Source of the DNA: a virus
IMG/VR virus record: IMGVR_UViG_3300028384_000675
Span: 28,947 to 92,946 of that record
Direction: 5' to 3' (one strand)
DNA length: 64,000 bases
Numbering within the stretch: position 1 is the stretch's first letter; every line of letters starts with the position of its first letter. This document shows positions 775-39,251 of the stretch, piece after piece. Below the pieces are notes generated by a model. The model did not search any database and was not told the origin of the DNA. It saw only the letters and a program-made list of their open reading frames with translations. The position numbers were made by a program, and so were the translations under genes.

Positions 775-1881
775 TTAGAGATCATATGGGTCGAACAGTT
801 GCCACGGTTCGTATTTCATCCTTTCTTGTTCTTCGATTTGCTGAATTGCGTCGCTACCGTCGTCAATAAAACCGAACGGAACGATGTCGTCTTCGATCTG
901 TCTCATCTGTTGTTCGAACATCATCTGCTTTAGGTTGATGTCTGTCATATCAGCGAACATCTGAGTTGTAATGAAGTACCCTAGCATCACGAGGTTCATC
1001 ATGAGGTCGTCGTGGTTTCCTTCGCTTGCTTCGTATGACACTCCTTTCGATACAAAGGTAGACACTTCCATGATCGTATCTTCGTCAACAATCTCAAGCT
1101 TTTTCTCTTCTAGCAAATCTTTAATACCCGAGCAACCGAGACGCTTGACCCTTCGTGTCATCTCAATACCAATAGCATTCGCTTTCACGGCAGACTCTAC
1201 GTGTACGTTCTCGTACTCCAGATCGTAGTACAGACCATTACAGACGACTGCGCCCTGATCGTTCGACTCAATTACGACGTATGCATTGTTGTATGCTTTC
1301 GCGATTTTATATATAATATCAGGGAAGAGTATTGGAGAAATAGTGTTGTTCCGATACGCAGCGACCTGACGAAACGGGCGTGTGGCAATGTCGATAACTG
1401 TAAAAGTCGAATAGTCCTGTCCTCTTCCTTTCGCTACGTCAACAGTCATGAGATATTCATGACTGGGTTGTGTTTCTTCGTATACGTTGAGGCAACCATT
1501 CTCCAATACTTTGATCGGTGGCAGTGCCCTAAGATTCAATAGAGTTTCTGCGCCGATCAAAGTATCCCCCGTTCCGAAGAACGTGTTGTGGGAAGTAAAC
1601 GATTTATCGTGATTATAAACTTTGCCGTTTTCTACATTCAGCGGGTCATAAAAATATTGCCCCTCGCAAACTTCCCTACGAACAACAACCTTTCCTATGT
1701 CATCTCCGGAGAAAATATCTTTGGCAAACTTGACTTGACTGGTAATAACAAATTTATGATTGATTGCGGTGCAAAGTTCAGTGCCGTCTTCGAATACAAA
1801 ACGAAACCCATAATCATGCCAATAACGATTTACACCATGAAATTTTTGAAATCCAGAAGGTGTTAAGATTTGTATATCGAT
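775..1881 (-). CDS. terL: Terminase large subunit C-terminal (nuclease) half, preceded by a C-intein; start codon uncertain
   Basis: The frame of ORF 775..1560 stays open up to a TAG at 1897-1899 and reads IDIQILTPSGFQKFHGVNR...CTAINHKF...FYDPLNVENGKVYNHDKSFTSHN|TFFGTGDTLIGAE.... It then contains RNase H-like terminase motifs (VDVAKGRGQDYST, IESNDQG, HDDLMMNLV). There is no ATG/GTG/TTG upstream of 1560; ATC at 1881 and ATA at 1875 follow GGAGAGG. Confidence 0.9.
   Translation of the reverse strand: MDIQILTPSGFQKFHGVNRYWHDYGFRFVFEDGTELCTAINHKFVITSQVKFAKDIFSGDDIGKVVVRREVCEGQYFYDPLNVENGKVYNHDKSFTSHNTFFGTGDTLIGAETLLNLRALPPIKVLENGCLNVYEETQPSHEYLMTVDVAKGRGQDYSTFTVIDIATRPFRQVAAYRNNTISPILFPDIIYKIAKAYNNAYVVIESNDQGAVVCNGLYYDLEYENVHVESAVKANAIGIEMTRRVKRLGCSGIKDLLEEKKLEIVDEDTIMEVSTFVSKGVSYEASEGNHDDLMMNLVMLGYFITTQMFADMTDINLKQMMFEQQMRQIEDDIVPFGFIDDGSDAIQQIEEQERMKYEPWQLFDPYDL
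1585..1881 (-). mobile_element. C-terminal fragment (IntC, ~97-99 aa) of a split intein in terL
   Basis: Block B-like TAINHKF, block F FYDPLNV and terminal SHN followed by Thr(+1). Resembles, from memory, the AceL-TerL type IntC. Confidence 0.88.
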
Positions 1882-2585
1882 GGGAGCCTCTCCGTTCTAG
1901 TTTTTCCAGACACTATATCTGCAATGCATTTCGCAGTAACATTATAATACTCGCAATATTTTCTGGCGAATGTAGAGTATGGAGTTATCGGTTTCCAACC
2001 AGAATTTTTCTTTCTTCTTTCTTCGTTAATCGGTATCAGTTCTTCTCTTATTTTATCTAGTTCTTTCGCAAAAGTATCTCTGATCTCATCAACTTGATTG
2101 TCTGTCAATTTTGGCGGTCTTAATCTTTTTCCTGATTTGGATTCTTTTTGTTTTTTAATATATTCTGGGTTTTTGTAATTTTCTTTACTTCTCTTTGACC
2201 TTATGTGAAATCCTTCTCTTTTTGCGCGTTTTTTTGCTGACTCAGACATTTTTTTTCTTTGTTCGTCAGAAAACTTATATCCCAATGTTGTGAAGTTAGG
2301 CGAGTTGTGCCCATACCCTTTACCAGAAGGAGATTCGTTCAACCCATTATTAAACGTATCAAGGGAATTAATCCAATACTCTTCTCTTCCTTCAATATAG
2401 TTTCGGTCGTTAGATTCTTCAAGTATTTGTACATCGAAATCGTCACCTTTAAAACGATTAGACCTTTTGTGATCGCCCATTCGAATCTTGAATCTACGTT
2501 GTATGGTAATCCCAACGTATTGCTTTGAGTCTGACTTCCTCTTCAAAAGATAAACCAAGTGTTTCTCTTGTTCTGATACAGTCAT
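1863..2585 (-). CDS. Free-standing GIY-YIG homing endonuclease (Seg-like) with NUMOD3 and a C-terminal HTH
   Basis: LVYLL...QYVGIT..RFKIRMGDH...GREEYWI...GLN catalytic core; GYKFSDEQRKKMSESAK (NUMOD3); KLTDNQVDEIR...NVTAKCIADIVSGKT (HTH). AT-rich and overlaps both terL halves. Confidence 0.88.
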   Translation of the reverse strand: MTVSEQEKHLVYLLKRKSDSKQYVGITIQRRFKIRMGDHKRSNRFKGDDFDVQILEESNDRNYIEGREEYWINSLDTFNNGLNESPSGKGYGHNSPNFTTLGYKFSDEQRKKMSESAKKRAKREGFHIRSKRSKENYKNPEYIKKQKESKSGKRLRPPKLTDNQVDEIRDTFAKELDKIREELIPINEERRKKNSGWKPITPYSTFARKYCEYYNVTAKCIADIVSGKTRTERLPSIYKS

Positions 2586-2658
2586 AAAAATCGCCTATTC
2601 TTATTTCGTATATAATATTATTTATAAGAACAGTTATTTGAGAACGACTTTCTAGGCA
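2494..2658 (-). mobile_element. N-terminal fragment (IntN) of the split intein: ~28-aa core plus a tail overlapping the endonuclease gene
   Basis: Cys1 codon at 2658-2656; block A-like CLESRSQITVLINNIIYEIRIGDFYD; stop at 2496-2494. Confidence 0.85.
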
Positions 2659-3447
2659 ATTACCAAATTCTTGGTCGAACTGTAATTGCGAAGTGTTTGA
2701 AATTGTTTGTCGTTTCCACTCCTCGTCTCGACCAGGAACGTCCCACCAATTTACCGTGAATGCTTTGTACTCATTAACCTTTTGTACAGCACCTTCCCAT
2801 ATTTTATGATAGGTGTTTCCGATACCATTCGCTGTAGATGTAATAATAACTTTCGTATCTTTACCAGATGAGATAACAGGATAGGTTGAAGTATAGAACT
2901 CAGCAGCACGCTCAACAAACGCAAACTCGTCCAGAAAAAGCAGGTTAACAGACATACCACGTATAGAAGAACCAGAGGTGGCAGCAGCAATAATGCGAGA
3001 ATTATTACTAAACTCAATTGAACCTTTATTAAGAGCGCGACACCCTGGCTGTAGAAAAAACGGTAAATTTTCAAGCGCCAAGGTGACTCTGGCGAGCATC
3101 TCTCGAGCGGTTGCACCTTTGTTAGCGAGGACAGCGATCGTCTTCTCAGGGTGAAATATAGCATACCATAATAGATAAACAACGGATGAAATAGACTTAC
3201 CACTTTGTCGACAGGCGAGGACGATCGAGAAACGATTATCATTAAAGTGGTCAAACATATTTTCTTGATATGGGTAAAGGTCAAAGTTGACAAGTCCTTT
3301 ATCGAGAGAAATGATTTTTACATATGTTCGTGCAAAATATGCAGGATCTTTCATACATTTAGCATACTCAACGACCTGTTCTTCAGTCCATTGTTGTTGT
3401 ACGCCATCCCGTTTTACATTAATATTACCAAGGTAACTATCATTCAT
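2494..3447 (-). CDS. terL: Terminase large subunit N-terminal (ATPase) half fused to an N-intein
   Basis: YLGNINVKR, LYPYQ adenine-binding motif, Walker A CRQSGKS and Walker B LLFLDEFAF. Ends QEFGN|CLESRSQITVL...IRIGDFYD. Likely start is the ATG at 3447, overlapping the terS stop. Confidence 0.95.
   Translation of the reverse strand: MNDSYLGNINVKRDGVQQQWTEEQVVEYAKCMKDPAYFARTYVKIISLDKGLVNFDLYPYQENMFDHFNDNRFSIVLACRQSGKSISSVVYLLWYAIFHPEKTIAVLANKGATAREMLARVTLALENLPFFLQPGCRALNKGSIEFSNNSRIIAAATSGSSIRGMSVNLLFLDEFAFVERAAEFYTSTYPVISSGKDTKVIITSTANGIGNTYHKIWEGAVQKVNEYKAFTVNWWDVPGRDEEWKRQTISNTSQLQFDQEFGNCLESRSQITVLINNIIYEIRIGDFYDCIRTRETLGLSFEEEVRLKAIRWDYHTT
2619..2626 (-). promoter_or_regulatory. Late promoter TATAAATA inside the IntN coding sequence, upstream of the endonuclease
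   Basis: Exact consensus about 34 nt before the ATG at 2585. Confidence 0.65.
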
Positions 3448-3796
3448 CCTGATCGCTAGCATCAATCACCTTCTCATCATTTTGTTGCAGTAGTCTCTGC
3501 AGGTCAGTGGTACTTCCTATGAAAACATTATTATTAGTGATTGCCTTTTGTTCTTCTTTCTTAGGATCGCTCATTATATCCATGTTCTTTTTATTTAGAT
3601 CCATCAGTTTGTCGGTCACATCAGCGATGTTCTTGATCATGCCGGATAGAACCTCGAACGCACGTGGGTGCTCGCTCTCGCGCGCGACCTCCATCATTAG
3701 GTCCATGCCACGTTTACCGTTCTCAATTAAATCAAGATATGTATCGCGAGAGGTTTCATAATCGTCTTTGATGTTTTTCTTATCTTGATCTGTCAT
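3440..3796 (-). CDS. terS: Terminase small subunit (gp16-like)
   Basis: DYETSRDTYLDLIENG...ARESEHPRAFEVL...DKLMDL...TNNNVFIGSTTDLQRLL is typical of marine T4-like gp16. Overlaps the terL start. Confidence 0.92.
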   Translation of the reverse strand: MTDQDKKNIKDDYETSRDTYLDLIENGKRGMDLMMEVARESEHPRAFEVLSGMIKNIADVTDKLMDLNKKNMDIMSDPKKEEQKAITNNNVFIGSTTDLQRLLQQNDEKVIDASDQDE

Positions 3797-24010: not shown

Positions 24011-24937
24011 TTAGTCAATAATAGTGAATGTTCCACCCATATTTTGATGCAATTGGCACTTATACTCATAACTTACACCCGACACTGGGGTGAATGAGAC
24101 ACTACCAGTTTCCGTTGGATCAGCAATGAGGACATTATTATCGTCAACGATCATAAACGGATGACCAGAAGTGTTTACATTAAACGTATATTCTGTTCCA
24201 GAAGTAAGGTCTAGTGATGGAGCTTCCACACCATTCAAATAGAACTTACCGTTAGAAACTGTCACGTTAAATGTCGTAACTTCTGGTTCTGGATCAGGTG
24301 CCGATTCAACCGTAAAGTCAGAAGTCGTTGTCGTAGCATTACCATTCGCATCAGTCGCAGTAAATCTCATTGAGAACGAAGTCGCTTCACTTCCTGGTGT
24401 TACTGTGAATACATTATCAGACTGGGATACTGTAGCGCCGTTGAGTGCGGAAGAAGCAGAAATTGCAGTAACTGAAACACCGAATTGATCGCCCCCAGAA
24501 CCATCAAACGCAGTTAGTTTGGTTGGTTGAGCAGATAGATTGTTTGCGTCATAGACGTAGACTGAACCAGTGTAAGAATCGTCATAATACGCACCAACGA
24601 CGATCTTATCAGCAGTAGCAGCAACTGATATACCGAACTGATCGCTAGCAGCGCCATCAAACGCTGTTAGTTTAGTCGGTTGAGCAGATAGATTGTTGGC
24701 ATCATAGACATAAACTGAACCCTTAGTGTCGTCACCATATGCACCAACAACGATCTTATCACTAGAAGCAGCAACTGAGTGTCCAAAGAGATCATTCGCA
24801 GCACCATCAAATGCTGTTAGTTTCGTTGGTGTTGCAGATAGATTGTTGGCGTCAAAGACATAGACTGAACCAGATTGAGTTCCATTGTCATCGTCAGCTT
24901 GTGCGCCAACAATGATCTTGTCAGCAGTAGCAGCAAC
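24011..24937 (-). pseudogene. In-frame 3' remainder of the giant FG-GAP gene beyond TAG-TAA: last blades, half Ig domain and cupredoxin-like domain
   Basis: After FG-TAG-TAA the same frame continues VAATADKIIVGAQADDDNGTQSGSVYVFDANNL... without stops into ORF 24011..24370 (36406-24370 = 12036, divisible by 3). Confidence 0.85.
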
Positions 24938-24940
24938 TTA

Positions 24941-27900
24941 CTAACCGAAGGAATCAAAAGAAGCACCATCAAACGCAGTTAGTTTAGTCGGTTGAGCAGA
25001 TAGGTCATTGGCGTCATAAACATAGACTGAACCATTGAAATCGTCACCATTTGCACCAACGACGATCTTGTCGGAAGAAGTAGTAATTGAATATCCGAAT
25101 TTATCATTCGCAGCGCCATCAAATGCAGTTAGTTTAGTTGGTTGAGCGGATAGATTGTTGATGTCATAGACATAGACTGAACCAGTGTAAGAATCTTCGC
25201 CGTATGCACCAACAATGATCTTATCAGCAGCAGTAGCAATTGAGATGCCGAAGAAATCGCCCGCAGCACCATCAAATGCTGTTAGTTTAGTTGGTGTTGC
25301 AGATAAATTATTGGCGTCATAGACGTAGACTGAACCAGACTGAGATCCATTGTCATCATCTAGGCGTGCACCAACAATAATCTTATCAGCAGTAGCAAAA
25401 ACATTCTCTCCGAAGCAATCACCTGCAGCAGCATCAAACGCTGTTAGTTTCGTTGGTGTTGCAGACAGATTGTTGGCGTCATAGACATACACTGAACCGG
25501 AACTAGATCCATTGTCGCCGTCACCCCATGCACCAACAACGACATAACTTGATCCTGACGCTACTTCCTCATAAGACCATGTAATCGCATCGCCTTCTGG
25601 ATCAGTACCAACTGCAGTAATTGCTGTTCCGCTTCCACCTGCTGTCAGCAGATATGAAGACTCAATACCAGTCACCGATGGTGCTTGGTTGACATATGTA
25701 AAGTCAAAGTCAGATGACACTGACGTTACATTACCTTCTGAGTCAGTCGCCTTAAAGGTCAACTGGAAGTCAGCGTCCTGTTGACCAGGAGTTACTGTGA
25801 ACACGTTATCAGATTGCGCAACGGTTACATCACCGAGTGGACTAGGTGCAACAGATCCAACTGCGTTAAATCCAAAGCTAATGCTAGTACCAGTTCCCGC
25901 AGGTGGATTTACTAATTCTGGTGCTGCCGATAAATCGCTCAGGATGTAAACATACATACCACCAGTACTCGCGTCTTTTCTGTGAGCAGAAGAATATAAC
26001 TTATCGCCAATTATGGTTGTGTTATATCCTAGCATTGCACCTGTTGCTGGAGATTCCAATACTGTCGGAGCAGCAGAAAGGTTGTTTATGTTATAAACAT
26101 AAATAGCACCTGCTGATGAGTTTCTTTGGTGTGCCCCGACGAAAAGTTTATCTTCGTGTGGAAGAACAGACATACCAAAGTAATCTCCTTCAGCAGCATC
26201 GAATGCTACAAGTTTCTCAACAAAGGATAAGTCGCTTTCGTTGTACACGTATACAGCACCACCACTAGTACCGTTCGAATTATGGTCCGCAGTCACAGCA
26301 GAAATATAGATCTTACCCCCATAAGTTTTTATTGAGTATCCGCCAAATCTGTCAGACTCAGACGCATCTGGCGCAGTTAATTTCTGTACGAATGCATAAG
26401 TATTGACATCGTAAACATAAACTGCTCCAGCATCAGTACTATTGTCGTCGTCTCCCATCGATCCAATCAAGATATGATTAGATGTTACTGTTATACCTCC
26501 GCCAAGTCCAAAATAGTCGCGATGATCGCCGTTGGTAGGAGTTAATGTTGCCTGAAGCGAAAGGTCAGATTTGTTGTAGATATAGACTTTTCCGGTATAA
26601 TCATCATTACTGTTCGTTGTTGGTCCCCATCCATATGCTCCAATGATCAATAAGTCGTCAGTGACGGAAATTCCGCTTCCGAATCGAAGGTTATTCTGCG
26701 CTTCGCCAGTAAGCATGGTCGGCGCGGCAGAAAGGTCGCTTCTATCGTAAATATAAACCGCTCCGCCCCAGGTTTCATCCGATTCATCTGACATCATCTC
26801 ACCTATGTAGATTTTGTCGGAATCAATTTCCATTGAAAATCCAAATCGTTCTGCTGATGAACCGTTCGGCGCAGTAAGCAATGTTGGTTCCTCTGTCAAA
26901 TCAGTTGGATTATATACATACACATAACCCTGATAACTATTAGATTGTATCGCAGAAACAAATAACTGATCTTGTGACGTGGATGACACTGCCTCATACG
27001 ACCATGTAACCGTGTCACCTTCTGGGTCAGTTGCCGCAGCAGTGATCACAGTGCCCTGACCTTGAGTCAGAGTATATGTTGAGTCAATACCAGTCACCGA
27101 TGGTGCTTGGTTAACATAGGTCAACGAGAAGTCTGCATCTCTGGTATCCGTATTTCCTGCTGTATCAGTGAGGGTGAATCGTATCGTGAAGTTTGCATCA
27201 GCAGTTCCTGGTGTTACTGTGAATTCGCCGCCATTTTGCGTTATAGCAGTTCCGTTCAAACCAGAAGGAACGCCTCCGTTCAAGACTTCTGCAAACGACC
27301 AAGTAACAGCGTCGCCGTCAGCGTCAGATGACATACCAACGATCACCTCGTCTACACCCTGAGTCAGCGTATACACAGATTCAATACCTGTGATCACTGG
27401 CGCAGCATTATAGTCAAAGGTGATGTCAGAGGTCGCAGTAGTCGCTGCACCGTTTGTATCAGTTGCCGTAAAGGTCAACTGGAAGGTAGCATCTTGATCC
27501 CCAGGAGTGATTGTGAACACGTTACCCGCCTGAGTTACTGTTGTACCTGAAAGGTCGCCAGAAGTTACTGCGTAAGTCAACGAAACAGTATCACCGTCAG
27601 AGTCTGAAGTTGTTACTGTGATCTCAGTATCTTGACCTTGATCCAGCGTATACGAAGAATCAACGCCAGTTATTGATGGCGCGTCATTATAGTCTAGTGT
27701 AAACTCAGAATCGAAGTTTGTCTGGTTTCCTGACTCATCAGTTGCAGTAAAGCGCAACGTGAAGTTAGCATCCTGTTGTCCAGGAGTTACTGTGAAGTCA
27801 TTACCGTTCTGCGTTACAGTAGTTCCGTTCATACCAGAAGGAACACCCTCGCCTAGAACTTCTTCGTAACTCATAGTAACTGTTTCGCCTTCGGCATCAG

Positions 27901-30900
27901 ATACTACAGGAACGATTACTTCGTTAACGCCCTGAGTCAATGTATACGCAGGTTCAATACCGCCGAGTGACGGTGCTTGATTCACGTATGTAAAGTCAAA
28001 GTCAGATGTTGTAGAAGTCACATTACCGTTTGAGTCAGTCGCCTTAAAGGTCAACTGGAAAGTAGCATCCTGTTGTGCAGGTGTTACTGTGAAGACATTG
28101 TCAGATTGTGTTACAGTGACACCGTTGAGTTGCGAAGATAGATTATTTGCAGAAACTGAATAACCGAAATAATCTGCTCCTGCGCCATCATATGCTGTTA
28201 GTCTGGTCGGTTGAGCAGAGAGATCATTTATATCATAGACATAAACTACTCCAGTATATGTACTACCAGGACCGCCGTATGCTCCGACAATGATTTGTTC
28301 AGACGTTACCGCAAGACCAGTGCCGAACATATCAGTCGCAGCACCATCAAACGCTGTTAGTTTCGTTGGTTGAGCAGACAGATCGTTTGCGTCAAAGACA
28401 TAAACTGATCCAGATTGCGCCCCTCGGTCATCATCAGCATATGCGCTCACAACTACCTTATCAGAACTTATAGCAACGTGTTGCCCGAACATATCGCTCG
28501 TTGCCCCATCGTATGCTGTTAGTTTCGTTGGTGTCGCAGAAAGATCGTTCGCGTCATAGACATAGGCAGTGCCTGTATTGCTATTATCGCCCCTCGCTCC
28601 GATAACGACCTGACTAGAGGATGCTTCGATTGATATTCCAAACATTTGGTTTTCTGAAGCATCCGGAGATACCAACTTAGTTGGTTGAACAGAAAGGTCT
28701 GACTTATCGAAAACGTATACCGCTCCAGAATTATTTCCGTGATCGTCATCAAACGATCCGACTAATATCTTATCAGCAGTCGTAGCGAATCGATATCCGA
28801 AGTTATCACTCACAGCGCCATCATATGCTGTCAACTTAGTTGGTTGTGCATTAAGGTTATTTATGTCAAAGACATAAACTGCACCGGCATAAGTTGCCTC
28901 TTGATCATCCCAAGAATTTCCGACAATAATTTGATCTTCGGTAACTAGAACACGTTCTCCGAACCTTTTATCTCCTGCTTGATTATGCATATCATATGCT
29001 GTCAGTTTTGTTGGAGTAGCAGAAAGGTTGTTCAAATCGTACACGTAAACTGAACCAGAGTTAGGTTGCCCATCATCATCACCATATGATGTTACAGCTA
29101 ATATATTAGAATTTAAAGAAGAATGCCTGCCGAAGGAATCACCCGCAGCACCATCAAACGCAGTTAGTTTCGTTGGTTGGGCAGATAGATTATTCGCGTC
29201 AAAGACATAAACTGAACCAGAATTAGACCCGTTGTCATCGTCTCCTGCTGCTGACACAACCACATAATTCGTACCAGAGATTACTTCCTCATAACTCCAT
29301 GCGATCGCATCACCTTCTGGATCAGTTCCGACTGCAGTGATCACAGTGTCCTGACCTTGAGTCAACGTGTAAGCAGACTGGATTCCAGTCACCGATGGCG
29401 CTTGGTTGACGTAAGTAAAGTCAAAGTCAGAAGTTGCTGAAGTTGCGTTACCTTCTGAGTCAGTCGCAGTAATGCGTAACTGGAAGTCAGCATCAGCAGT
29501 TCCTGGCGTTACTGTAAACACGTTATCAGATTGTGTTACAGTGACACCGTTGAGTTGTGAAGGAGCAGAAACTGCAGCGACTGCCCAACCGAAACGATCG
29601 TCGTAAGCAGCATCAAATGCGAACAACTTAGTTGGTGCTGCTGATAGATCGTTTCTATCATAAACCCATACTGACCCATTTCTGCCATCGTCCATATTGG
29701 CGCCAATTACAATACTGTCTTCATTTATAGAGATATCTTGTCCGAAGTATTCGGATTCAGTATCGCCATCATCAGGTGCCGTGAGTTTTGTTGGAGCAGC
29801 AGAAAGATCGCTAGTATCATAGACATAAACTGCGCCTTGATAAGCATTACCATTTTCTGATTTTCTTTCTGCACCAACTACAAGAGACCCATGACGTGCA
29901 TCGACCCGCTCTCCAAAGTAACTATTTGACGTTAAATCTGACTCAGTAATAATTGTTGGCGCTGCTGATAGATCACTCAGAGCGTAAGCAAAGACTGCAC
30001 CTTTTCTACCATTATATCCCATGGCACCAACGTAAAGATTAGTGTCATCAGAAGCGAGGTAACAACCTAACTGTAAGTAATCTGTACCATCTTCGAGTTT
30101 TGTTGGTGCTGCTGATAGATCGCTCAGAGAATATACATAAACTGCTCCGTGATTATAAGAACCATGTTGTCGGCAACCAACATAAACATTATTGCTGTCT
30201 ATGTGTACAGCTCTTCCAAATTGATCAGAACTACCGCCATCAGGTGTAACCAACTTGGTAGGAGTTGCACCTAAATTAGAAGCGTCATAGACATAAACTG
30301 CACCGGCATTAGTCGTTTTTGTATCGTCGTTGATTGCAGAGACTACTACATGCGTTTCAGTTGCTGAAATTGCCCAACCCACATTGTCAGACGCAGTTGA
30401 TGGTGATAGTATTGTTGGTGCTGCTGATAGATCGCTTAAATCATAGACGTAGGCGCTACCAAAATTGTTCCCTCCGGTGTCATCGGAATAAGCACCAACG
30501 TAAAGTTTAGTGCTAGTCATAAACATACTCGCACCATAATTGCCGGAAACTGGTGATAATTTAGTTGGTCGAACAGATAAATTGTTAGCATCATAGACAT
30601 AAACTGAACCAGAGTTAGTTCCGTGAACGTCATCGAGCGGTGCACCAACAGCAATATAACTTGATCCAGACTTAACTTCTTCGAACGACCATGTAATCGC
30701 GTCACCTTCTGGATCAGTTGCCGCAGCAGTGATCACAGTATCCTGACCTTGAGTCAGCGTGTAAGCAGACTGGATTCCAGTGACGGTTGGCGCTTGGTTG
30801 ACATAGTCGAAGTTGACCGTTGCTGGTACAGTTGCCGTGTTACCGTTTGAGTCAGTCGCCTTGATGTTCAATGTAAACGAAGCATCCTGAGTTCCTGGCG

Positions 30901-33900
30901 TTACTGTGAACACGTTATCAGACTGTGTTACAGTAGTTCCGTTGAGTGCAGATGATAATACATTATATTCATTAACATTCTTAGAGTCATTGTAGTCCGC
31001 AACAAAAACCTTACCAGATCCGAAACCTATACCCAACTCAGAATAATTATATGAGTATTCAGATGGATTGTATGATCCTGCTAAAGCATTTGTACTTAGA
31101 TCATATATCCTCATCTCACCAGAATTATGATTCAGTATCAAATATCCATCAGAGACAGATATCTGTTCAGATATCTGACTACTAGAATATGAAACTACAT
31201 CAGAGAGTCTATTTCCAGTGGTAGCATCGTATACGAAGATGGTTCTTTGGTCCGAAACATAAATCTTATCGTTCGAAATCTCAACATCCGCTATCTCATT
31301 AACTCCATCGAAATCGATTCTAAATGAACCATTTTGATAATCTGTGATGTCTGGATATACAGTTAAGTGTTTTCCATATGAACTCTTGCTAGCCACTACA
31401 ACCTTATTCTCTTCGGATACTATAACTTCTCCCCATTTAGCATATTCTACAGCACCTTGTGGATCAGCAATCCATCCATCTATTTCAGCATATGTGTTTT
31501 TGTCGTAAATACGAATTGCACCAGATTGGTTTCCTGATTGATGTCTCCCATGAGCACCAACAACAATTCTATCGGTTGTCACAGTGACAGCGAAACCGAA
31601 TTTTTCACCGTTAGATCCAGATGGGTTGTAGATTGATTGGAGTTTATTACCATTCAGGTCTGCAATCACAATACCACCTGCTTGGGTTCCGCCTGTAGGC
31701 GCTAATTGCTCCCCGCCGCTGACAACAATATCGTCCCCAAAGGCAATTGAAGCGCCTAAAAACTGAGATCCGGATGTCGAATCAGGTTCTATTCTATTAA
31801 TCAATTGTCCTGTTTGATGATTGAACAGGAATACTGCTCCTCCATAACTACTATATCCAGTATTACTGATCGCAACGATATCACCGCTTACTTTTACCGT
31901 CTTCCCTGGGCGATCAGAAGACCCCGGATCTGCAAATTTATATGGTGCATAACTGTTTCGAACGAACGATTCAGAAGTTAGAGAAACAGATAGTTGCTCC
32001 TCGAACGACCATGTGATCGCATCACCTTCTGGATCAGTTGCAGCAGCAGTGATCACTGTATCCTGACCCTGAGTCAGCGTATATGCTGCGTCAATACCAG
32101 TAACGGTTGGAGCGAAGTTATGCGCTCTTGCGTCTGCTGTATCATACATTGCAAGAGAAGATCCCAAGAATGCGCGATTAGTTGGATTAGACTGGTGAAT
32201 TGTATTCAGTAGATTACCGCTCATGTCGTATACACGGAGTTCACCAGAAGAAGTCTCTGCTGCATTCTTACCGTAGTCGCCGACAACGATTCTGTTGTTT
32301 GCAACAGAGATTCGAGTGTTGTTGGTAGATGCGATCTTTTGCATATTCGATCCATCAAGGTCGAAGATGTAGAAGTGAGCGGCGTTATCTGAACCGACAA
32401 CAACCTTCTCATGTCCAATTGCGAGACCAGTACCGAAACGGGCAACACTTGTAAGTGCTGGATCGTAGAGTCTTACCTCATTAGATCCATCGAGGTCATA
32501 AAGATAAACCGATCCAGCGAAACTGTTGATTGATCCGCCGTCAGCGATAAACGCAGTAACTGCAATTTTTCCGTTACCAATAGCGATCTCATAATCGCCG
32601 AATTGATCGCTTTCAGTCTGACCATCTGTAGCAGAAATTGTATTTATGAACGTTCCCTGCATGTCATAGATATAAACCTGACCTGAATCTGTAACACCGT
32701 CAGCATCTGCCATTGGAGCGCCGACTACGATTCTTCCATGACCCGCAGCAACTTTCCAACCGAATTTGGTCCAACCGTTCTGACTTCCTGCTCCTGGTAA
32801 TCCAGCAGAAGGTTCAGTAACTTTAATTTCGTTTGAACCATCCAAGTCGTAAATGTAGAATTCCCCTAGTCCAGAACCGCCTTCATAAGTACCGACGATA
32901 ATCTTCCCATCGCTGATTGCGACTGATGTACCGAATAGGGTACTAGGTGCCGAAGGAGTTATCTCTATTGGTTCGTTTGTAGTTGCGAGATCGTATACGA
33001 AGACTCTCTGTTCAGTTCGTTGACCAACAACGAGGATTGTACCGTCGATTGCCATGTTTTCGTCAGCACCGAACTGAGAATCATTATCCATACCTGCTGG
33101 GATGAACAATTCTTTCTCGTTTGATCCGTCAAGGTCAAACGCATACAATTTGTTCGAGTAGTTGTTATTTGATGCTGCTGCAATAATTCTTCCAACAGAA
33201 GTATCATTAACAACTGGTACCGGAATCTCATAATCGAACGTTGGTGTGACCTTAGTAGAATTGCCTTCTGAGTCAGTCGCCTTGATGTTCAATGTAAACG
33301 AAGCATCCTGAGTTCCTGGTGTTACTGTGAATACGTTATCAGATTGTGTGATAGTGACACCGTTGAGTGCAGACGAAGAAACATACCCTACCATATTGTC
33401 ACTAAATGCAACATAAGTATTTGACCCAGAGATTTGATGCGATGTTCCTTGCCCAGTATAGAGATATGTACCAGAACTTAAATCCGCAAAGTCATATACA
33501 TACAATTTTCCGGTGTTATTATTCTCAGTCTTGTCTCCAACAAAGAGTCTATCTCCTGATACGGCAAGATCTGAACCGAATTCATAACCCGTATTGGAAG
33601 GTTTGTATATGATTGCTGGATTGGCACTCAAGTTATTCCTATCGAACACCCATACGCTTCTATCACTTTCTTTCTGGACTATTACATGATCAGAAGAAAG
33701 TGCAACACTTCTACCAAATTTAGCGCTTCTAATAGCAAACAAAGGTACAGATATTGGCGCTGCAGACAAATTTTCAGTATCGTAAATATACGCTGCTCCG
33801 GAGTTTGCCTGAGATCCATTATATTCAAACGGTATACCAACGACAAAATGCGTTCCGAAAGCGGCAATGGAACAGTCTTGTAAAGTTGCAGACGCATTTA

Positions 33901-36406
33901 GTACTGTTGGAGACGCAGATAAATCGTCAAGGTCATATACGACCAAAATTCCATAACTTTGACCTGACGCAGTCGACTGCGAACAGATCAACTTATTACC
34001 CGAAACGACGATATTTTCACCAAAATCACGATTCATTGCAGAATTTGGCGAAGTTAGTACTGTCTTGTTAACAGTATACGGATCGACGGTACCAGAACCT
34101 AAATCATTCAGATCAAATACCCATATTGCACCGCGATTGTTTGTTAATGATGGATGACCTACAATTAGGTGATTATCTGTAATTGCAATTGATTCTGCAG
34201 TAGATTGATACTGTATTTCAACTTCATGGGTAGATAAATCATTTAGGTCATATATTCTTATTGAATTACCACGCTTTCCTGCTAATTTACCGCCGCCAAC
34301 AGTCATCATTATCAGAGGATCTTGAATGGTTTCGATTAGTTCCATTGTAGACGGGTTGTACAAATATGTGTCGTAACTGCTTTTAACAAAAACGCCTGAT
34401 CCCAGTACTTCTTCGAACGACCATGTGATTGCATCGCCTTCTGGATCAGTTCCGACTGCTGTGATCACAGTATCCTGACCTTGAGTCAGTTCATATGTTG
34501 AGTCAACGCCAGCAATTACTGGTGGTTGATTGACATATATGATGTTAGTTGTTACAGATGTTGTGTTGTCTTCAGTGTCAGTCGCAGTAATACGCAAGTT
34601 GAAATCTGCATTTTTCATTTCTGCTGTTGGTGTCACTGTAAACGTGTTATCAGATTGCGTGATAGTGACGCTGCTCGCTGGAGCAGTGTTTGCTGAAACT
34701 CTAATTCCAAAGAAATCCCGATATCCACCATCGAATGCTGTTAACTTGGTTGGTGCTGCGGATAGATCGTTTAGATCATAAACATAAGTCGAACCGGCTT
34801 GATTTTCACTATAACTCGATCCGACGATAACATGATCGTCAGTTATCGCAACATCTGATCCGAAAAATTCGAATTCAGAGTCGCCGTCATCTCCCACATA
34901 CAATTGAGTCGGTTGAGCAGAAAGGTCGCTTAGGTCAAAGACGTAAACAGCACCTTGATACACTTGTCCATCCATTGTTTTTCTATGGGCAGCGATTACA
35001 GCAAAATTTTCGTTCGCTACAATCCTATCTCCGAAGTTGTCTCGACCATGACTAGTTGGTGGAGACGATCCATCAAACGCTGTTAGTTTCGTTGGTTCGG
35101 CAGAAAGGTCGTTTAGGTCATAGACATAAACTGCACCAGTATCGATACCTAGATCGTCGTCACCCACGGCGCCAACAAACAATTTACTGCTTGTCAATTC
35201 AATGTCGGCACCAAATTGGTGCGCGGCACCAGTGTACTGGTTTGTCAACAAATCACTTGGCACGATTTCAGTTGGAGCGGCAGAAAGATCGTTTATATCA
35301 TAAAGGTATACTATACCTTCGTCGACGGTGGGATTCCCAGCATCGTTTGTTCCATCCACCCTAGACACGCCGACAGCAAGATAACTTTCGTTCAAAGACA
35401 TATATTCTCCGAACTTATGTTGATTGCCGCGCGGATCTTCGAGTATCTTAATTGGATCAGCAGACAAATCATTCAAGTCGTAAACATATACAGCACCTTT
35501 GGATCCATTTGACGTACTGATATACCCATCGAACGCACCAACCACAAGTTTGTTACTATTGACAGCGATACGCTTTCCAAATACAGTCCACTCTCCTTGA
35601 TCAGGTGGAACTATTTTTATTGGATCAGCAGAAAGGTCGCTGGTGTCATAAACATAAACTGCGCCGCCGGCACTGAGACCGGAGTCAGTTTTGACATAAG
35701 AACTAATGAAAAGTCTTTCAGGAGTAACTAAAACGTCGCCCGCACCAAACTGATCACTCGCAGCACCATCAAATGCTGTCAACTTAGTTGGCGCTACAGA
35801 TAAATTGTTTGCATCATAGACATAAACTGCACCAGCGTTAGATCCTTTATCATCGTCACCACTTGACGTTACAACTATATAACCGCCGCTTCTAAGTTCT
35901 TCGAACGACCATGTGATCGCATCACCTTCTGGGTCAGTACCAACTGCAGTAATTACGGTGTCCTGACCATATGTCAGATTGTAAGTAGATTGGATTCCAG
36001 AAACGAATGGTGGGAAGTTGATCATCAATTCTGGTTGGAATGATATTGAATCGATTACGTAATCATTCTTACCGTACCAACCAGTGTGGAATTTAAGGTC
36101 TGGATTGTAGTCTGCTGCGGTAGGTCGCATTGATACTGTATCGAGATCAACCGAATCCTTACCATAAATTCCAGTGTGGAATTTAAGGTCTGGATTATAT
36201 GTGGCGTCCGTTGGTTGTAACGATATTGAATCGATTACATAACCGTCACCCTTACCATACCATCCAGTGTGGTATTTTAAATCTTCATTATAATCTGCGG
36301 AAACTGGTCTAATCGAAGTTGTAACGACTACGACTTCCTCTATCTCTGCTTCAAACCAGCTTTGCTTACTTCCTGCTAATGCCGACGTTAGGTGTCTAAA
36401 GCGCAT
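24941..36406 (-). CDS. Giant virion adhesin-like protein: cadherin/Ig-like domains carrying FG-GAP beta-propellers (3821 aa to the first stop; ~4130 codons in total)
   Basis: Many repeats of KLTAFDGAA.D.FG.SVA....IVVGA..DD...GSVYVYD, plus NQAP.V.GI...TDPEGDAITWS / TVTQSDNVFTVTPG...F.L...ATDS.GN domains. Confidence 0.88.
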   Translation of the reverse strand: MRFRHLTSALAGSKQSWFEAEIEEVVVVTTSIRPVSADYNEDLKYHTGWYGKGDGYVIDSISLQPTDATYNPDLKFHTGIYGKDSVDLDTVSMRPTAADYNPDLKFHTGWYGKNDYVIDSISFQPELMINFPPFVSGIQSTYNLTYGQDTVITAVGTDPEGDAITWSFEELRSGGYIVVTSSGDDDKGSNAGAVYVYDANNLSVAPTKLTAFDGAASDQFGAGDVLVTPERLFISSYVKTDSGLSAGGAVYVYDTSDLSADPIKIVPPDQGEWTVFGKRIAVNSNKLVVGAFDGYISTSNGSKGAVYVYDLNDLSADPIKILEDPRGNQHKFGEYMSLNESYLAVGVSRVDGTNDAGNPTVDEGIVYLYDINDLSAAPTEIVPSDLLTNQYTGAAHQFGADIELTSSKLFVGAVGDDDLGIDTGAVYVYDLNDLSAEPTKLTAFDGSSPPTSHGRDNFGDRIVANENFAVIAAHRKTMDGQVYQGAVYVFDLSDLSAQPTQLYVGDDGDSEFEFFGSDVAITDDHVIVGSSYSENQAGSTYVYDLNDLSAAPTKLTAFDGGYRDFFGIRVSANTAPASSVTITQSDNTFTVTPTAEMKNADFNLRITATDTEDNTTSVTTNIIYVNQPPVIAGVDSTYELTQGQDTVITAVGTDPEGDAITWSFEEVLGSGVFVKSSYDTYLYNPSTMELIETIQDPLIMMTVGGGKLAGKRGNSIRIYDLNDLSTHEVEIQYQSTAESIAITDNHLIVGHPSLTNNRGAIWVFDLNDLGSGTVDPYTVNKTVLTSPNSAMNRDFGENIVVSGNKLICSQSTASGQSYGILVVYDLDDLSASPTVLNASATLQDCSIAAFGTHFVVGIPFEYNGSQANSGAAYIYDTENLSAAPISVPLFAIRSAKFGRSVALSSDHVIVQKESDRSVWVFDRNNLSANPAIIYKPSNTGYEFGSDLAVSGDRLFVGDKTENNNTGKLYVYDFADLSSGTYLYTGQGTSHQISGSNTYVAFSDNMVGYVSSSALNGVTITQSDNVFTVTPGTQDASFTLNIKATDSEGNSTKVTPTFDYEIPVPVVNDTSVGRIIAAASNNNYSNKLYAFDLDGSNEKELFIPAGMDNDSQFGADENMAIDGTILVVGQRTEQRVFVYDLATTNEPIEITPSAPSTLFGTSVAISDGKIIVGTYEGGSGLGEFYIYDLDGSNEIKVTEPSAGLPGAGSQNGWTKFGWKVAAGHGRIVVGAPMADADGVTDSGQVYIYDMQGTFINTISATDGQTESDQFGDYEIAIGNGKIAVTAFIADGGSINSFAGSVYLYDLDGSNEVRLYDPALTSVARFGTGLAIGHEKVVVGSDNAAHFYIFDLDGSNMQKIASTNNTRISVANNRIVVGDYGKNAAETSSGELRVYDMSGNLLNTIHQSNPTNRAFLGSSLAMYDTADARAHNFAPTVTGIDAAYTLTQGQDTVITAAATDPEGDAITWSFEEQLSVSLTSESFVRNSYAPYKFADPGSSDRPGKTVKVSGDIVAISNTGYSSYGGAVFLFNHQTGQLINRIEPDSTSGSQFLGASIAFGDDIVVSGGEQLAPTGGTQAGGIVIADLNGNKLQSIYNPSGSNGEKFGFAVTVTTDRIVVGAHGRHQSGNQSGAIRIYDKNTYAEIDGWIADPQGAVEYAKWGEVIVSEENKVVVASKSSYGKHLTVYPDITDYQNGSFRIDFDGVNEIADVEISNDKIYVSDQRTIFVYDATTGNRLSDVVSYSSSQISEQISVSDGYLILNHNSGEMRIYDLSTNALAGSYNPSEYSYNYSELGIGFGSGKVFVADYNDSKNVNEYNVLSSALNGTTVTQSDNVFTVTPGTQDASFTLNIKATDSNGNTATVPATVNFDYVNQAPTVTGIQSAYTLTQGQDTVITAAATDPEGDAITWSFEEVKSGSSYIAVGAPLDDVHGTNSGSVYVYDANNLSVRPTKLSPVSGNYGASMFMTSTKLYVGAYSDDTGGNNFGSAYVYDLSDLSAAPTILSPSTASDNVGWAISATETHVVVSAINDDTKTTNAGAVYVYDASNLGATPTKLVTPDGGSSDQFGRAVHIDSNNVYVGCRQHGSYNHGAVYVYSLSDLSAAPTKLEDGTDYLQLGCYLASDDTNLYVGAMGYNGRKGAVFAYALSDLSAAPTIITESDLTSNSYFGERVDARHGSLVVGAERKSENGNAYQGAVYVYDTSDLSAAPTKLTAPDDGDTESEYFGQDISINEDSIVIGANMDDGRNGSVWVYDRNDLSAAPTKLFAFDAAYDDRFGWAVAAVSAPSQLNGVTVTQSDNVFTVTPGTADADFQLRITATDSEGNATSATSDFDFTYVNQAPSVTGIQSAYTLTQGQDTVITAVGTDPEGDAIAWSYEEVISGTNYVVVSAAGDDDNGSNSGSVYVFDANNLSAQPTKLTAFDGAAGDSFGRHSSLNSNILAVTSYGDDDGQPNSGSVYVYDLNNLSATPTKLTAYDMHNQAGDKRFGERVLVTEDQIIVGNSWDDQEATYAGAVYVFDINNLNAQPTKLTAYDGAVSDNFGYRFATTADKILVGSFDDDHGNNSGAVYVFDKSDLSVQPTKLVSPDASENQMFGISIEASSSQVVIGARGDNSNTGTAYVYDANDLSATPTKLTAYDGATSDMFGQHVAISSDKVVVSAYADDDRGAQSGSVYVFDANDLSAQPTKLTAFDGAATDMFGTGLAVTSEQIIVGAYGGPGSTYTGVVYVYDINDLSAQPTRLTAYDGAGADYFGYSVSANNLSSQLNGVTVTQSDNVFTVTPAQQDATFQLTFKATDSNGNVTSTTSDFDFTYVNQAPSLGGIEPAYTLTQGVNEVIVPVVSDAEGETVTMSYEEVLGEGVPSGMNGTTVTQNGNDFTVTPGQQDANFTLRFTATDESGNQTNFDSEFTLDYNDAPSITGVDSSYTLDQGQDTEITVTTSDSDGDTVSLTYAVTSGDLSGTTVTQAGNVFTITPGDQDATFQLTFTATDTNGAATTATSDITFDYNAAPVITGIESVYTLTQGVDEVIVGMSSDADGDAVTWSFAEVLNGGVPSGLNGTAITQNGGEFTVTPGTADANFTIRFTLTDTAGNTDTRDADFSLTYVNQAPSVTGIDSTYTLTQGQGTVITAAATDPEGDTVTWSYEAVSSTSQDQLFVSAIQSNSYQGYVYVYNPTDLTEEPTLLTAPNGSSAERFGFSMEIDSDKIYIGEMMSDESDETWGGAVYIYDRSDLSAAPTMLTGEAQNNLRFGSGISVTDDLLIIGAYGWGPTTNSNDDYTGKVYIYNKSDLSLQATLTPTNGDHRDYFGLGGGITVTSNHILIGSMGDDDNSTDAGAVYVYDVNTYAFVQKLTAPDASESDRFGGYSIKTYGGKIYISAVTADHNSNGTSGGAVYVYNESDLSFVEKLVAFDAAEGDYFGMSVLPHEDKLFVGAHQRNSSAGAIYVYNINNLSAAPTVLESPATGAMLGYNTTIIGDKLYSSAHRKDASTGGMYVYILSDLSAAPELVNPPAGTGTSISFGFNAVGSVAPSPLGDVTVAQSDNVFTVTPGQQDADFQLTFKATDSEGNVTSVSSDFDFTYVNQAPSVTGIESSYLLTAGGSGTAITAVGTDPEGDAITWSYEEVASGSSYVVVGAWGDGDNGSSSGSVYVYDANNLSATPTKLTAFDAAAGDCFGENVFATADKIIVGARLDDDNGSQSGSVYVYDANNLSATPTKLTAFDGAAGDFFGISIATAADKIIVGAYGEDSYTGSVYVYDINNLSAQPTKLTAFDGAANDKFGYSITTSSDKIVVGANGDDFNGSVYVYDANDLSAQPTKLTAFDGASFDSFG

Positions 36407-37104: not shown

Positions 37105-37818
37105 CTAAGATAAGGCGCTGTCTTCGATGCTGCTAAAAATTTCAGAACCATCCAGATTCAGGGTGTCAACGTCATATTGTGTAATGACAGGTTGATTCCT
37201 TGAAGCATCTTTATATAGGTTTATTTTCATTTCGAAATCTAGCGTGTAGATGATAGTTCTTCTTGCTTCGAGAACTGCCTCGTAATCGTCAGAAAATGTG
37301 ACACCCTGTAATGTAATTGGTGTATCTTCTTTGACGTCATCAAAATCTGATAGCGGATTCACAGTAAGAGTATAGTGAGGTGTGAAGTATGGTAGGACTT
37401 GCTCAACCACTTGTAATGCATCGTCCTGGGACTTTGCATAGATGTTCAATTGAAAGTTAATATTGTATGGTGAAGGACTGTATAACTTAGTGCGAGTGCT
37501 CTCAGTATCCGTGTCACCTCCCTTTGGGCAGAAGTTCATTTTCGGTAATTGCCGCGATGGGTCGTATTGCATTGCTACAATCTCAAATGACATACGAGGC
37601 AATTTGATCGCGATCTGACGTTCGTCTGCTCCAGCAGCATTCAATTGATCAATACGTGCTAGGAAATCTCTTCTTGGACCATAGGATAATGGGACCTTGG
37701 TTTCGCTCAAAATATTACCGGAACTGTTTTTACGAATAATATGAATGTCATTGAACAGCGTACCGAATACAGCAACCGCTTTTCGTATTCTTTGATTGTA
37801 GAAATGATCACCGAACAT
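37105..37818 (-). CDS. gp15: Tail sheath stabiliser / tail terminator (gp15)
   Basis: MFGDHFYNQRIRKAVAVFGTLFNDI...VPLSYGP...LPRMSFE...PYNINFQLNIYAKSQDDALQVVEQVLPYFTP. Confidence 0.93.
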   Translation of the reverse strand: MFGDHFYNQRIRKAVAVFGTLFNDIHIIRKNSSGNILSETKVPLSYGPRRDFLARIDQLNAAGADERQIAIKLPRMSFEIVAMQYDPSRQLPKMNFCPKGGDTDTESTRTKLYSPSPYNINFQLNIYAKSQDDALQVVEQVLPYFTPHYTLTVNPLSDFDDVKEDTPITLQGVTFSDDYEAVLEARRTIIYTLDFEMKINLYKDASRNQPVITQYDVDTLNLDGSEIFSSIEDSALS

Positions 37819-38459
37819 TAGGTTGGATCTCCGAATGGGTTACTTTCAGTAAAGTCAATGATTGAGTCACCAACTTCTTCAAAGTCATTGTTCTGCGCTT
37901 CGACTGGTAAACTCTCTGCCGAGTCACCATCATTGATGTCATCAAGGTCAGCGATACCTGTGTCGAAGTCTTCTTTATTGTATTCAAAGAGTTCACAACG
38001 TAGTTTGAACACTGGCAGGTTCTTTAATTGAAAGAACGGTTGCTGCGTTTCACAACGTGTGATCTCAAAGATAGAGTTAGAGAGTGTCAGATAAATCAGA
38101 TCGCCCTCGCGTGGGCGCGCGAACGATTCAGTTGCTGTTTGTTCATGATACGCAACGGTTGTATTCCATCGGCGTTTTGCTACAACGAATGTGGCAGCAT
38201 CACGAATCTCAACGCCGAACTTAGTGAACAGATCACCTTCTCCATCGAACCCTTCCGTATTCTCAATGTACATCTCAATTTTATATGCGTTATCGAATCT
38301 CGACACTGAGTCATCAACAAAGATTCGGTCGCGATCTACAATCTCACGTGGAATGTAATAGACATCCTGCCCATACATCTTGAGTGATTCAATGATTATA
38401 TCTTCGTAGAGAAGTTGTTCGCTACGAGTGCCTTGTGAGAAGTAAGGATTCGTGCTCAT
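37818..38459 (-). CDS. gp14: Neck protein (gp14)
   Basis: MSTNPYF...EQLLYEDIIIESLKMYGQDVYYIPR...FTKFGVEIRD...RPREGDLIY...DFTESNPFGDP; real start is the ATG at 38459. Confidence 0.93.
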   Translation of the reverse strand: MSTNPYFSQGTRSEQLLYEDIIIESLKMYGQDVYYIPREIVDRDRIFVDDSVSRFDNAYKIEMYIENTEGFDGEGDLFTKFGVEIRDAATFVVAKRRWNTTVAYHEQTATESFARPREGDLIYLTLSNSIFEITRCETQQPFFQLKNLPVFKLRCELFEYNKEDFDTGIADLDDINDGDSAESLPVEAQNNDFEEVGDSIIDFTESNPFGDPT

Positions 38460-38466
38460 ATTATCA

Positions 38467-39219
38467 TTATCCCATAAAGAAGTCGACAGGCAGTTCGTAT
38501 TCAGAACGAATCTTCTCATCGAGTCTTTCGATTTCGCTGTTCGCATCTTCAAGTATCTGACGACCGTTCAGTGTCACCCCACCAGGAAGTTGCATACCCT
38601 CGAACTTAATCAGGTTCATACCCCACTGTTGTTTGATCAGCGCAGTGGTATATTCCTTCAACCAGATATCATTCCAGACAGCAGTGTGATCGTTCTCGTT
38701 AATGATCTGGAATGCTTCTGCGATTAGGAACTGACCTTCTGAAATATCACGGTCTTCGATGTTTCCGTGCAAATACAAACGCCCTTGCTTGCGCGAGAAT
38801 GTAGTCAGCGGAGTTCCGTCCAATAACATATCGAGGAAGTCGAGATACTGTTCTAATTGATAATAGTACGACATCCCGCCAGCAAAGTTCATGAAATCGC
38901 CCAGACTGTTTAACATCATCTGATAGCGAATATCAAACATATTGACGTTTGCGTATGTTGGACTTAGAGGGAAAACTTTTGTGAGGTAAACGATCTCGTC
39001 AGAGACAGGAATGTACTTGTTGGCAATATCATCAGCAGTCATCTGATGTTTTAAGAAGATGCGCACAGTAGCATCGCTATGGTATTCGCGATACTTCTGT
39101 AACGCATCGTCTACTTTGTCTTCAATCTGATCGGGATCAACGTTGACCTCGATCACTGGCTCGCCTAATTTCCTCAGGCAATAGTCAATAAAAGTTTGTC
39201 TTGAGTTAGGTGATGCCAT
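38467..39219 (-). CDS. gp13: Neck protein (gp13)
   Basis: MASPNSRQTFIDYCLRKLGEPVIEVNVD.DQIED...WLKEYTTALIKQQWGMNLIKFEGMQLPGGVTLNG. Confidence 0.94.
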   Translation of the reverse strand: MASPNSRQTFIDYCLRKLGEPVIEVNVDPDQIEDKVDDALQKYREYHSDATVRIFLKHQMTADDIANKYIPVSDEIVYLTKVFPLSPTYANVNMFDIRYQMMLNSLGDFMNFAGGMSYYYQLEQYLDFLDMLLDGTPLTTFSRKQGRLYLHGNIEDRDISEGQFLIAEAFQIINENDHTAVWNDIWLKEYTTALIKQQWGMNLIKFEGMQLPGGVTLNGRQILEDANSEIERLDEKIRSEYELPVDFFMG

Positions 39220-39251
39220 GAAGCACTCCATTGGTATAAACGATTCTCATC

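Follow-up and report, generated by a model that had tools for sequence, protein, structure and literature searches.

The window analysed here is a stretch of 64,000 nucleotides, bases 28947–92946 of a linear 92,946-nt IMG/VR virus record that is estimated to be about 52% complete. Its source is a T4-like marine myophage (myovirus). Matches to PHROG families include a baseplate tail tube cap, baseplate wedge subunits (among them a gp6-like protein, phrog_219, E = 7e-125) and an amidase, and the gp6-like protein shares 40% identity with its counterpart in Phage C48C1 (Kyanoviridae) and about 34% with that of Synechococcus phage S-PM2. The long open reading frames (ORFs) are all encoded on the minus strand, with standard stops of which TAA is the most frequent; together, TAA and TAG terminate 24 of the 28 listed genes. 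Two pairs of neighbouring minus-strand ORFs share about 90 nt each, read in different frames (2494–3465 with 1863–2585, and 38467–39231 with 37818–38552); within 1863–3465 and 37818–39231, these may be genuine long overlaps, wrong start calls or frameshifts.

The gene under study is a giant adhesin- or fibre-like gene, and the 3595-aa gene next to it ends in a C-terminal Peptidase_S74 chaperone domain, which identifies the region as the fibre region of the genome. Its ORF starts at ATG 36406 and ends at a TAG after 3821 codons. The resulting 3821-aa product matches FG-GAP_2 (PF14312) over 27 stretches (E = 6e-235, above the Pfam gathering score), with FG motifs that group into about eight propellers, and it also matches the bacterial Ig-like Pfam families Big_13, Big_3_2 and Big_9. 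Searched against the PHROG families, the same protein has no match at E ≤ 0.001 despite these strong Pfam matches.

The TAG is followed directly by a second stop. On the minus strand the sequence reads ...TTC GGT TAG TAA GTT GCT GCT..., with TAG at 24943–24941 and TAA at 24940–24938 right after an FG motif, exactly as the original prediction had placed them. The frame then remains open for 308 codons up to a TAA at 24013–24011, again as predicted, so that the full read-through gene has about 4,130 codons and is intact apart from the double stop. At 43% GC, some 308 open codons cannot be due to chance, so this part was coding sequence until very recently. The blade register also runs on unbroken past the stops (FG-stop-stop-VAATADKIIVGA compared to FGHSVAASSDKIVVGA in the next blade, with no insertion or skip), and the first in-frame ATG, GTG or TTG on their 3′ side is codon 189 (ATG 24370). 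When we considered every place in the 92,946-nt record where two long segments share a frame, the double stop was the sole interruption that lacks a start close behind it; every other junction of this kind in the 93 kb is an ordinary gene boundary, with a normal stop and then a normal start. The double stop is a real feature of the record and not a chance pattern. The features of the locus are listed in Table 1.

Table 1. Features at and around the double stop (coordinates in the window).
Feature	Coordinates	Strand	Remarks
Truncated ORF, 3821 aa, giant adhesin/fibre-like	24941..36406	-	Pfam FG-GAP_2, Ig-like domains
Last seven-blade beta-propeller	24419..25591	-	AlphaFold2; about 4 blades precede the stops
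Tandem in-frame stops TAG TAA	24938..24943	-	In place of the 2 residues after the FG motif, blade 5
Open 3′ part, 308 codons + TAA	24011..24937	-	Blades 5–7, closing strand, Ig-like half-domain, linker, cupredoxin
Ig-like half-domain	24299..24460	-	..QSDNVFTVTPG..ATDANGN..; precedes the tip
C-terminal cupredoxin domain	24014..24295	-	His, Cys-x2-His-x2-Met; assigned by fold and ligands
Only ATG-started downstream ORF, 119 aa	24011..24370	-	Starts inside the Ig half-domain

To place the stops in the protein, we modelled the last propeller with AlphaFold2 as a read-through product, with Q at both stops and an alignment that includes 39 relatives. The prediction is a closed propeller of seven four-stranded blades (pLDDT 91.5, pTM 0.90), in which the stops take residues 217–218, within the first strand of blade 5 (E215–221). 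As encoded, only about four blades of this propeller are made, and the part cut off comprises three blades, the Ig-like half-domain and the C-terminal cupredoxin. The 3′ part retains its own match to FG-GAP_2 (E = 9e-41, four stretches, above the Pfam gathering score). That the truncation removes half a propeller and a copper-type domain had been proposed from the DNA alone, and it is borne out by the predicted folds (three of seven blades plus the cupredoxin).

Behind the last propeller follow the Ig-like half-domain, a Pro/Glu linker and a domain of 94 residues. AlphaFold2 predicts a Greek-key cupredoxin fold for the latter (pLDDT 88.7), for which the top Foldseek matches in the PDB are rusticyanin, amicyanin, azurin and CuA (TMq up to 0.79), and each of the 12 PDB matches at E ≤ 0.001 is to a copper protein or domain with the cupredoxin fold. 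Its set of ligands (His45, Cys80, His83 and Met86) is invariant in eight homologues and is also present in Phage C48C1. Under the curated Pfam cut-offs the domain has no match (Cupredoxin_1, 18.6 bits compared to 27, E = 0.002; Copper-bind, 14.7 compared to 21.2), so the assignment rests on fold and ligands; by the model, the tip is a cupredoxin domain with a predicted type-1 copper site. It is 74% identical at the amino acid level and 82% at the nucleotide level to the C terminus of WJE88004.1 of Phage C48C1 (L009:8001–8267), and such similarity between phages whose gp6 proteins are only 40% identical points to a recent horizontal exchange of the tip module. Residues 218–260 of the downstream piece, where the cupredoxin starts, also match phrog_708 (‘baseplate wedge subunit’) weakly.

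The Ig half-domain in front of the tip is shared more widely. It is 92% identical at the nucleotide level to two related loci (L015 and L042) over 147 nt and nearly identical in related phages (L010, L011, L015 and L042), with other modules behind it: in L010 a further propeller follows, and in the related protein P0122 (4235 aa), whose Ig half-domain is almost identical to the one here, the C-terminal domain is a different one. P0122 and a further relative, P0121 (3384 aa), have the same type of propeller with different C-terminal domains. In this pattern of sequence similarity, the Ig half-domain looks like a conserved recombination joint. The closest relative by gp6 (IMGVR_UViG_3300017751_003482, 95% amino acid identity) carries a giant gene whose first 2 kb are 82% and whose later part is 89% identical to ours at the nucleotide level, with the other propellers missing or reordered, and it ends before any orthologous site. 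Judged by such comparisons, the giant gene gains and loses modules quickly. The tip shared with C48C1 and the rearranged sets of modules indicate that tips are exchanged between phages, and that altered ends are normal in the evolution of this gene. The propeller also occurs outside giant genes, in stand-alone proteins of about 400–410 residues with a single propeller (P0241–P0264) that are found on many phage and metagenome contigs and share 65–73% identity with the last propeller here; the unit thus occurs as a gene of its own as well as a bead within the giant chains. A literature search on cyanophage FG-GAP fibres, C48C1 and cupredoxins in cyanophages returned nothing relevant.

The truncated protein itself (P0123) is present on one contig only. 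An exact-flank pattern with six free bases at the site had zero matches among the viral contigs of IMG/VR, and protein-guided scans of IMG/VR and JGI metagenome contigs reached at most 73% amino acid identity, with no near-identical comparator. A set of 5.8 billion proteins was searched for longer proteins, for giant ones that match the C-terminal region as read through, and for fragments around the site, and no match exceeded 78% identity. The stop-bearing word TTYGGNTAGTAAGTNGCNGC has ten matches in viral contigs, all out-of-frame in an unrelated gene. Two IMG/VR fragments encode a gp6 that is 95% identical at the amino acid level, and neither covers an orthologous site. No public sequencing run contains more than 31% of the words of the region, and the Logan contigs that match it are short pieces of related propellers, 87–95% identical, with many joints between blades. 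Roughly 420 kb of related loci contain no similar mid-gene interruption. Relatives of the giant gene stop behind complete propellers, and the genes that follow have proper starts.

At the two positions of the stops, all 120 related proteins have sense residues (YS in 22, RS in 13, ES in 9, WS and VS in 6 each, and others), with Ser at the second position in at least 91 of them. The codons given for the sister blades by the original prediction (TAT TCA, CAC TCA and ATA TCA) are all correct, and its description of two variable codons holds for the first, which differs between blades, and fails for the second, which is a conserved Ser. This Ser codon is TCA in five of the six sister blades of the last propeller, and in most aligned propellers of related phage contigs, which puts TAA a single C-to-A change away; several plausible codons (TAT, TGG, TCG, CAG, GAG and TTG) are a single change away from TAG. 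Two sister blades of the same gene, TTCGGTTATTCAGTT and TTCGGTTGGAAAGTT (FGYSV and FGWKV), are each exactly two substitutions from the observed 15-mer.

The blades around the site are well preserved. Pairwise comparison of the six full blades gave dN of 0.08–0.22 and dS of 0.2–0.7, with no difference between those upstream and downstream of the stops; these values indicate old duplicates under purifying selection that were not freshly homogenised. At the DNA level the blades are 75–86% identical over their core, the nearest paralogous whole blade (181 nt) being 80% identical, and 85–87% is reached only over tracts of 69–86 nt. In an alignment with 105 relatives that span the site, the 150 residues downstream average 56.9% identity and the 150 upstream 53.7%. 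The lack of any other decay, claimed on the letters alone, thus stands: there is a single lesion, and conservation behind it equals or exceeds that in front of it, for which reason we rejected a decayed pseudogene.

How the stops arose, and whether they lie in the phage population at all, allows more than one account. Sense codons may be present in the population and the stops may derive from library damage, a minority variant chosen by the assembler or the propagation of cloned DNA, an artefact of sequencing, consensus building or cloning that we consider unlikely and still worth keeping in mind. The allele rests on one contig, with at most 31% of the region's words in any public run, and the step from TCA to TAA is a C-to-A change, which is a known signature of damage. 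Speaking against an artefact, two consensus errors 2–4 nt apart that both produce stops would be an odd coincidence, and the rest of the contig, with its 11-kb ORFs, has no other broken frame; the two giant ORFs, of 3595 and 3821 codons, show no further break, which speaks for a consensus of high quality. A consensus error within a repeat, as first suggested, is unlikely, since paralogous blades are at most 80% identical as a whole, which makes repeat collapse improbable, and at most 87% over shorter tracts (85–87% over 69–86 nt), so that short-read k-mers at the site are unique. Far less probable is that the stops are a by-product of targeted diversification, by a diversity-generating retroelement (DGR)-like system or other hypermutation after FG, or an ON/OFF switch thrown by gene conversion from a sister blade. 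The first codon after FG does differ between blades, and T4-like phages recombine actively. The local hypermutation once proposed here finds no counterpart in the contig, which is incomplete: there is no reverse transcriptase (no match to PF00078) and no template-like copy (the best-matching blade, at 80% identity, differs at scattered positions), and the second codon is the conserved Ser. The recombination-reversible switch fares no better, for the blades differ by old substitutions (dS 0.2–0.7 under purifying selection) and are not homogenised, their identity tracts at the site extend just 6 nt upstream and about 20 nt downstream, and neither repeats (simple or inverted) nor a recombinase are present at the site. 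The sequence around it shows no homopolymer or short tandem repeat of the kind used in phase variation, and the contig contains no second copy of the stop-bearing 12–24-mer, which excludes a conversion patch from elsewhere in the contig sequence.

Other accounts take the stops as real and differ in what they do. An ochre-type suppressor tRNA from the part of the genome that the contig lacks, readthrough or bypass, or a restart could pass or compensate the stops and yield a full-length or two-chain protein, which we hold to be very improbable. The downstream frame is intact and the contig covers only about 52% of the genome; tRNA genes are frequent in T4-like phages, and a UUA anticodon reads both UAA and UAG. 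In the assembled half, however, no tRNA gene was found, and with 24 of the 28 listed genes terminating in TAA or TAG, a suppressor would be costly. Two stops in a row make the context anything but leaky, and the stops are not conserved in any of the relatives (120 proteins and the aligned propellers of related contigs). Programmed readthrough or recoding found no support, as the event is single in 93 kb, absent from the roughly 420 kb of related loci and replaced by sense codons in all 120 relatives. Nor did a bypass of the T4 gene 60 type: there is no gap and no matching landing codon, the blade register runs directly on after the stops, and RNA folding around the site is no better than in shuffled sequences (z = −1.37). 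Restart fails on the absence of a start codon for 189 codons; the ORF that begins at ATG 24370 is not a credible gene, because it starts inside a domain and has no Shine–Dalgarno motif within reach. Scans for promoters, terminators and restart signals at the site gave nothing above shuffles. Even more remote is the idea that the double stop acts as a gate, through which a suppressor tRNA or rare restart would give few full-length fibres, or two chains would assemble into a split propeller; if true, most fibres on the virions would lack the cupredoxin tip and a few would bear it. Finally, the truncation may have been positively selected, with the loss of the cupredoxin tip and the last propeller altering adsorption or host range. 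Fibre tips are frequent targets of selection, the family swaps its C-terminal modules and the intact downstream sequence would fit a very recent sweep. We find this doubtful, as half a propeller is a poor end point, the giant genes of relatives end after complete propellers and not mid-blade, and the roughly 420 kb of related loci contain no comparable truncation.

With a probability of roughly 55%, we favour a real and very recent clustered nonsense change that truncates a large accessory adhesin or fibre gene in which decay has not yet set in. Among the options raised at the outset, a recent truncation fits best, given one lesion, no decay and a loss confirmed by the predicted folds. Two base substitutions 2–4 nt apart would have turned a variable codon and a conserved Ser codon (TCA) into TAG TAA, most likely in one clustered mutational event. 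Residue 3821 would then be the last to be translated, and the chain would break off within the first strand of blade 5; the last propeller could not close, and its final three blades, the Ig half-domain and the cupredoxin tip would not be made. The remaining 3821 residues, a protein built like beads on a string, would presumably still fold and be mounted. The outcome would be a tip-less allele of a large, modular and fast-evolving accessory fibre gene, which may be tolerated or transient in the population. Two points count against the favoured truncation: two adjacent nonsense codons are improbable as independent hits, so that a clustered event has to be assumed, and a truncation in the middle of a propeller is expected to be deleterious, which makes its presence in a consensus somewhat surprising.

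Nonsense (amber and ochre) alleles and truncations of tail-fibre and accessory-fibre genes are classical in T4 phages. The amber mutants and host-range variants of T4 likewise have a point nonsense change in a virion appendage gene that leaves the gene otherwise intact and removes the distal part of the product; here, in contrast, there are two adjacent and different stops, found in an assembly from the environment rather than in a mutant selected in the laboratory. Compared to the Q-beta A1 readthrough protein and T4 gene 60, the locus shares an in-frame stop followed by a meaningful open frame, and a GGT codon before TAG, but it has a tandem stop, a continuous register and no leaky context, landing codon, structure or conservation. 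The interrupted domain, a confident seven-blade propeller, shares 65–73% identity with the stand-alone FG-GAP_2 (PF14312) propellers P0241–P0264, whereas here it belongs to a chain of about 4,130 residues with about eight propellers and is cut after blade 4. The tip, in turn, shares its fold with amicyanin and rusticyanin (TMq 0.55–0.79), with a short amicyanin-type loop (Cys-x2-His-x2-Met) and ligands at the expected places; unlike the solved cupredoxins, to which it is 14–25% identical, it is the C-terminal domain of a phage structural protein, and its copper binding is a prediction.

As a genetic event, the double stop is an ordinary finding that provides useful context and no new mechanism. 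The gene that carries it, a string of about eight propellers among Ig-like domains that ends in a copper-protein-like tip which distant phages share, is more interesting than its stop codons. If the allele is real, it would capture a moment in the loss or change of tips among giant modular phage adhesins, with a point truncation coming first and deletion or replacement of the module possibly following. The last propeller and the cupredoxin tip would then be dispensable to the phage, at least for a time.
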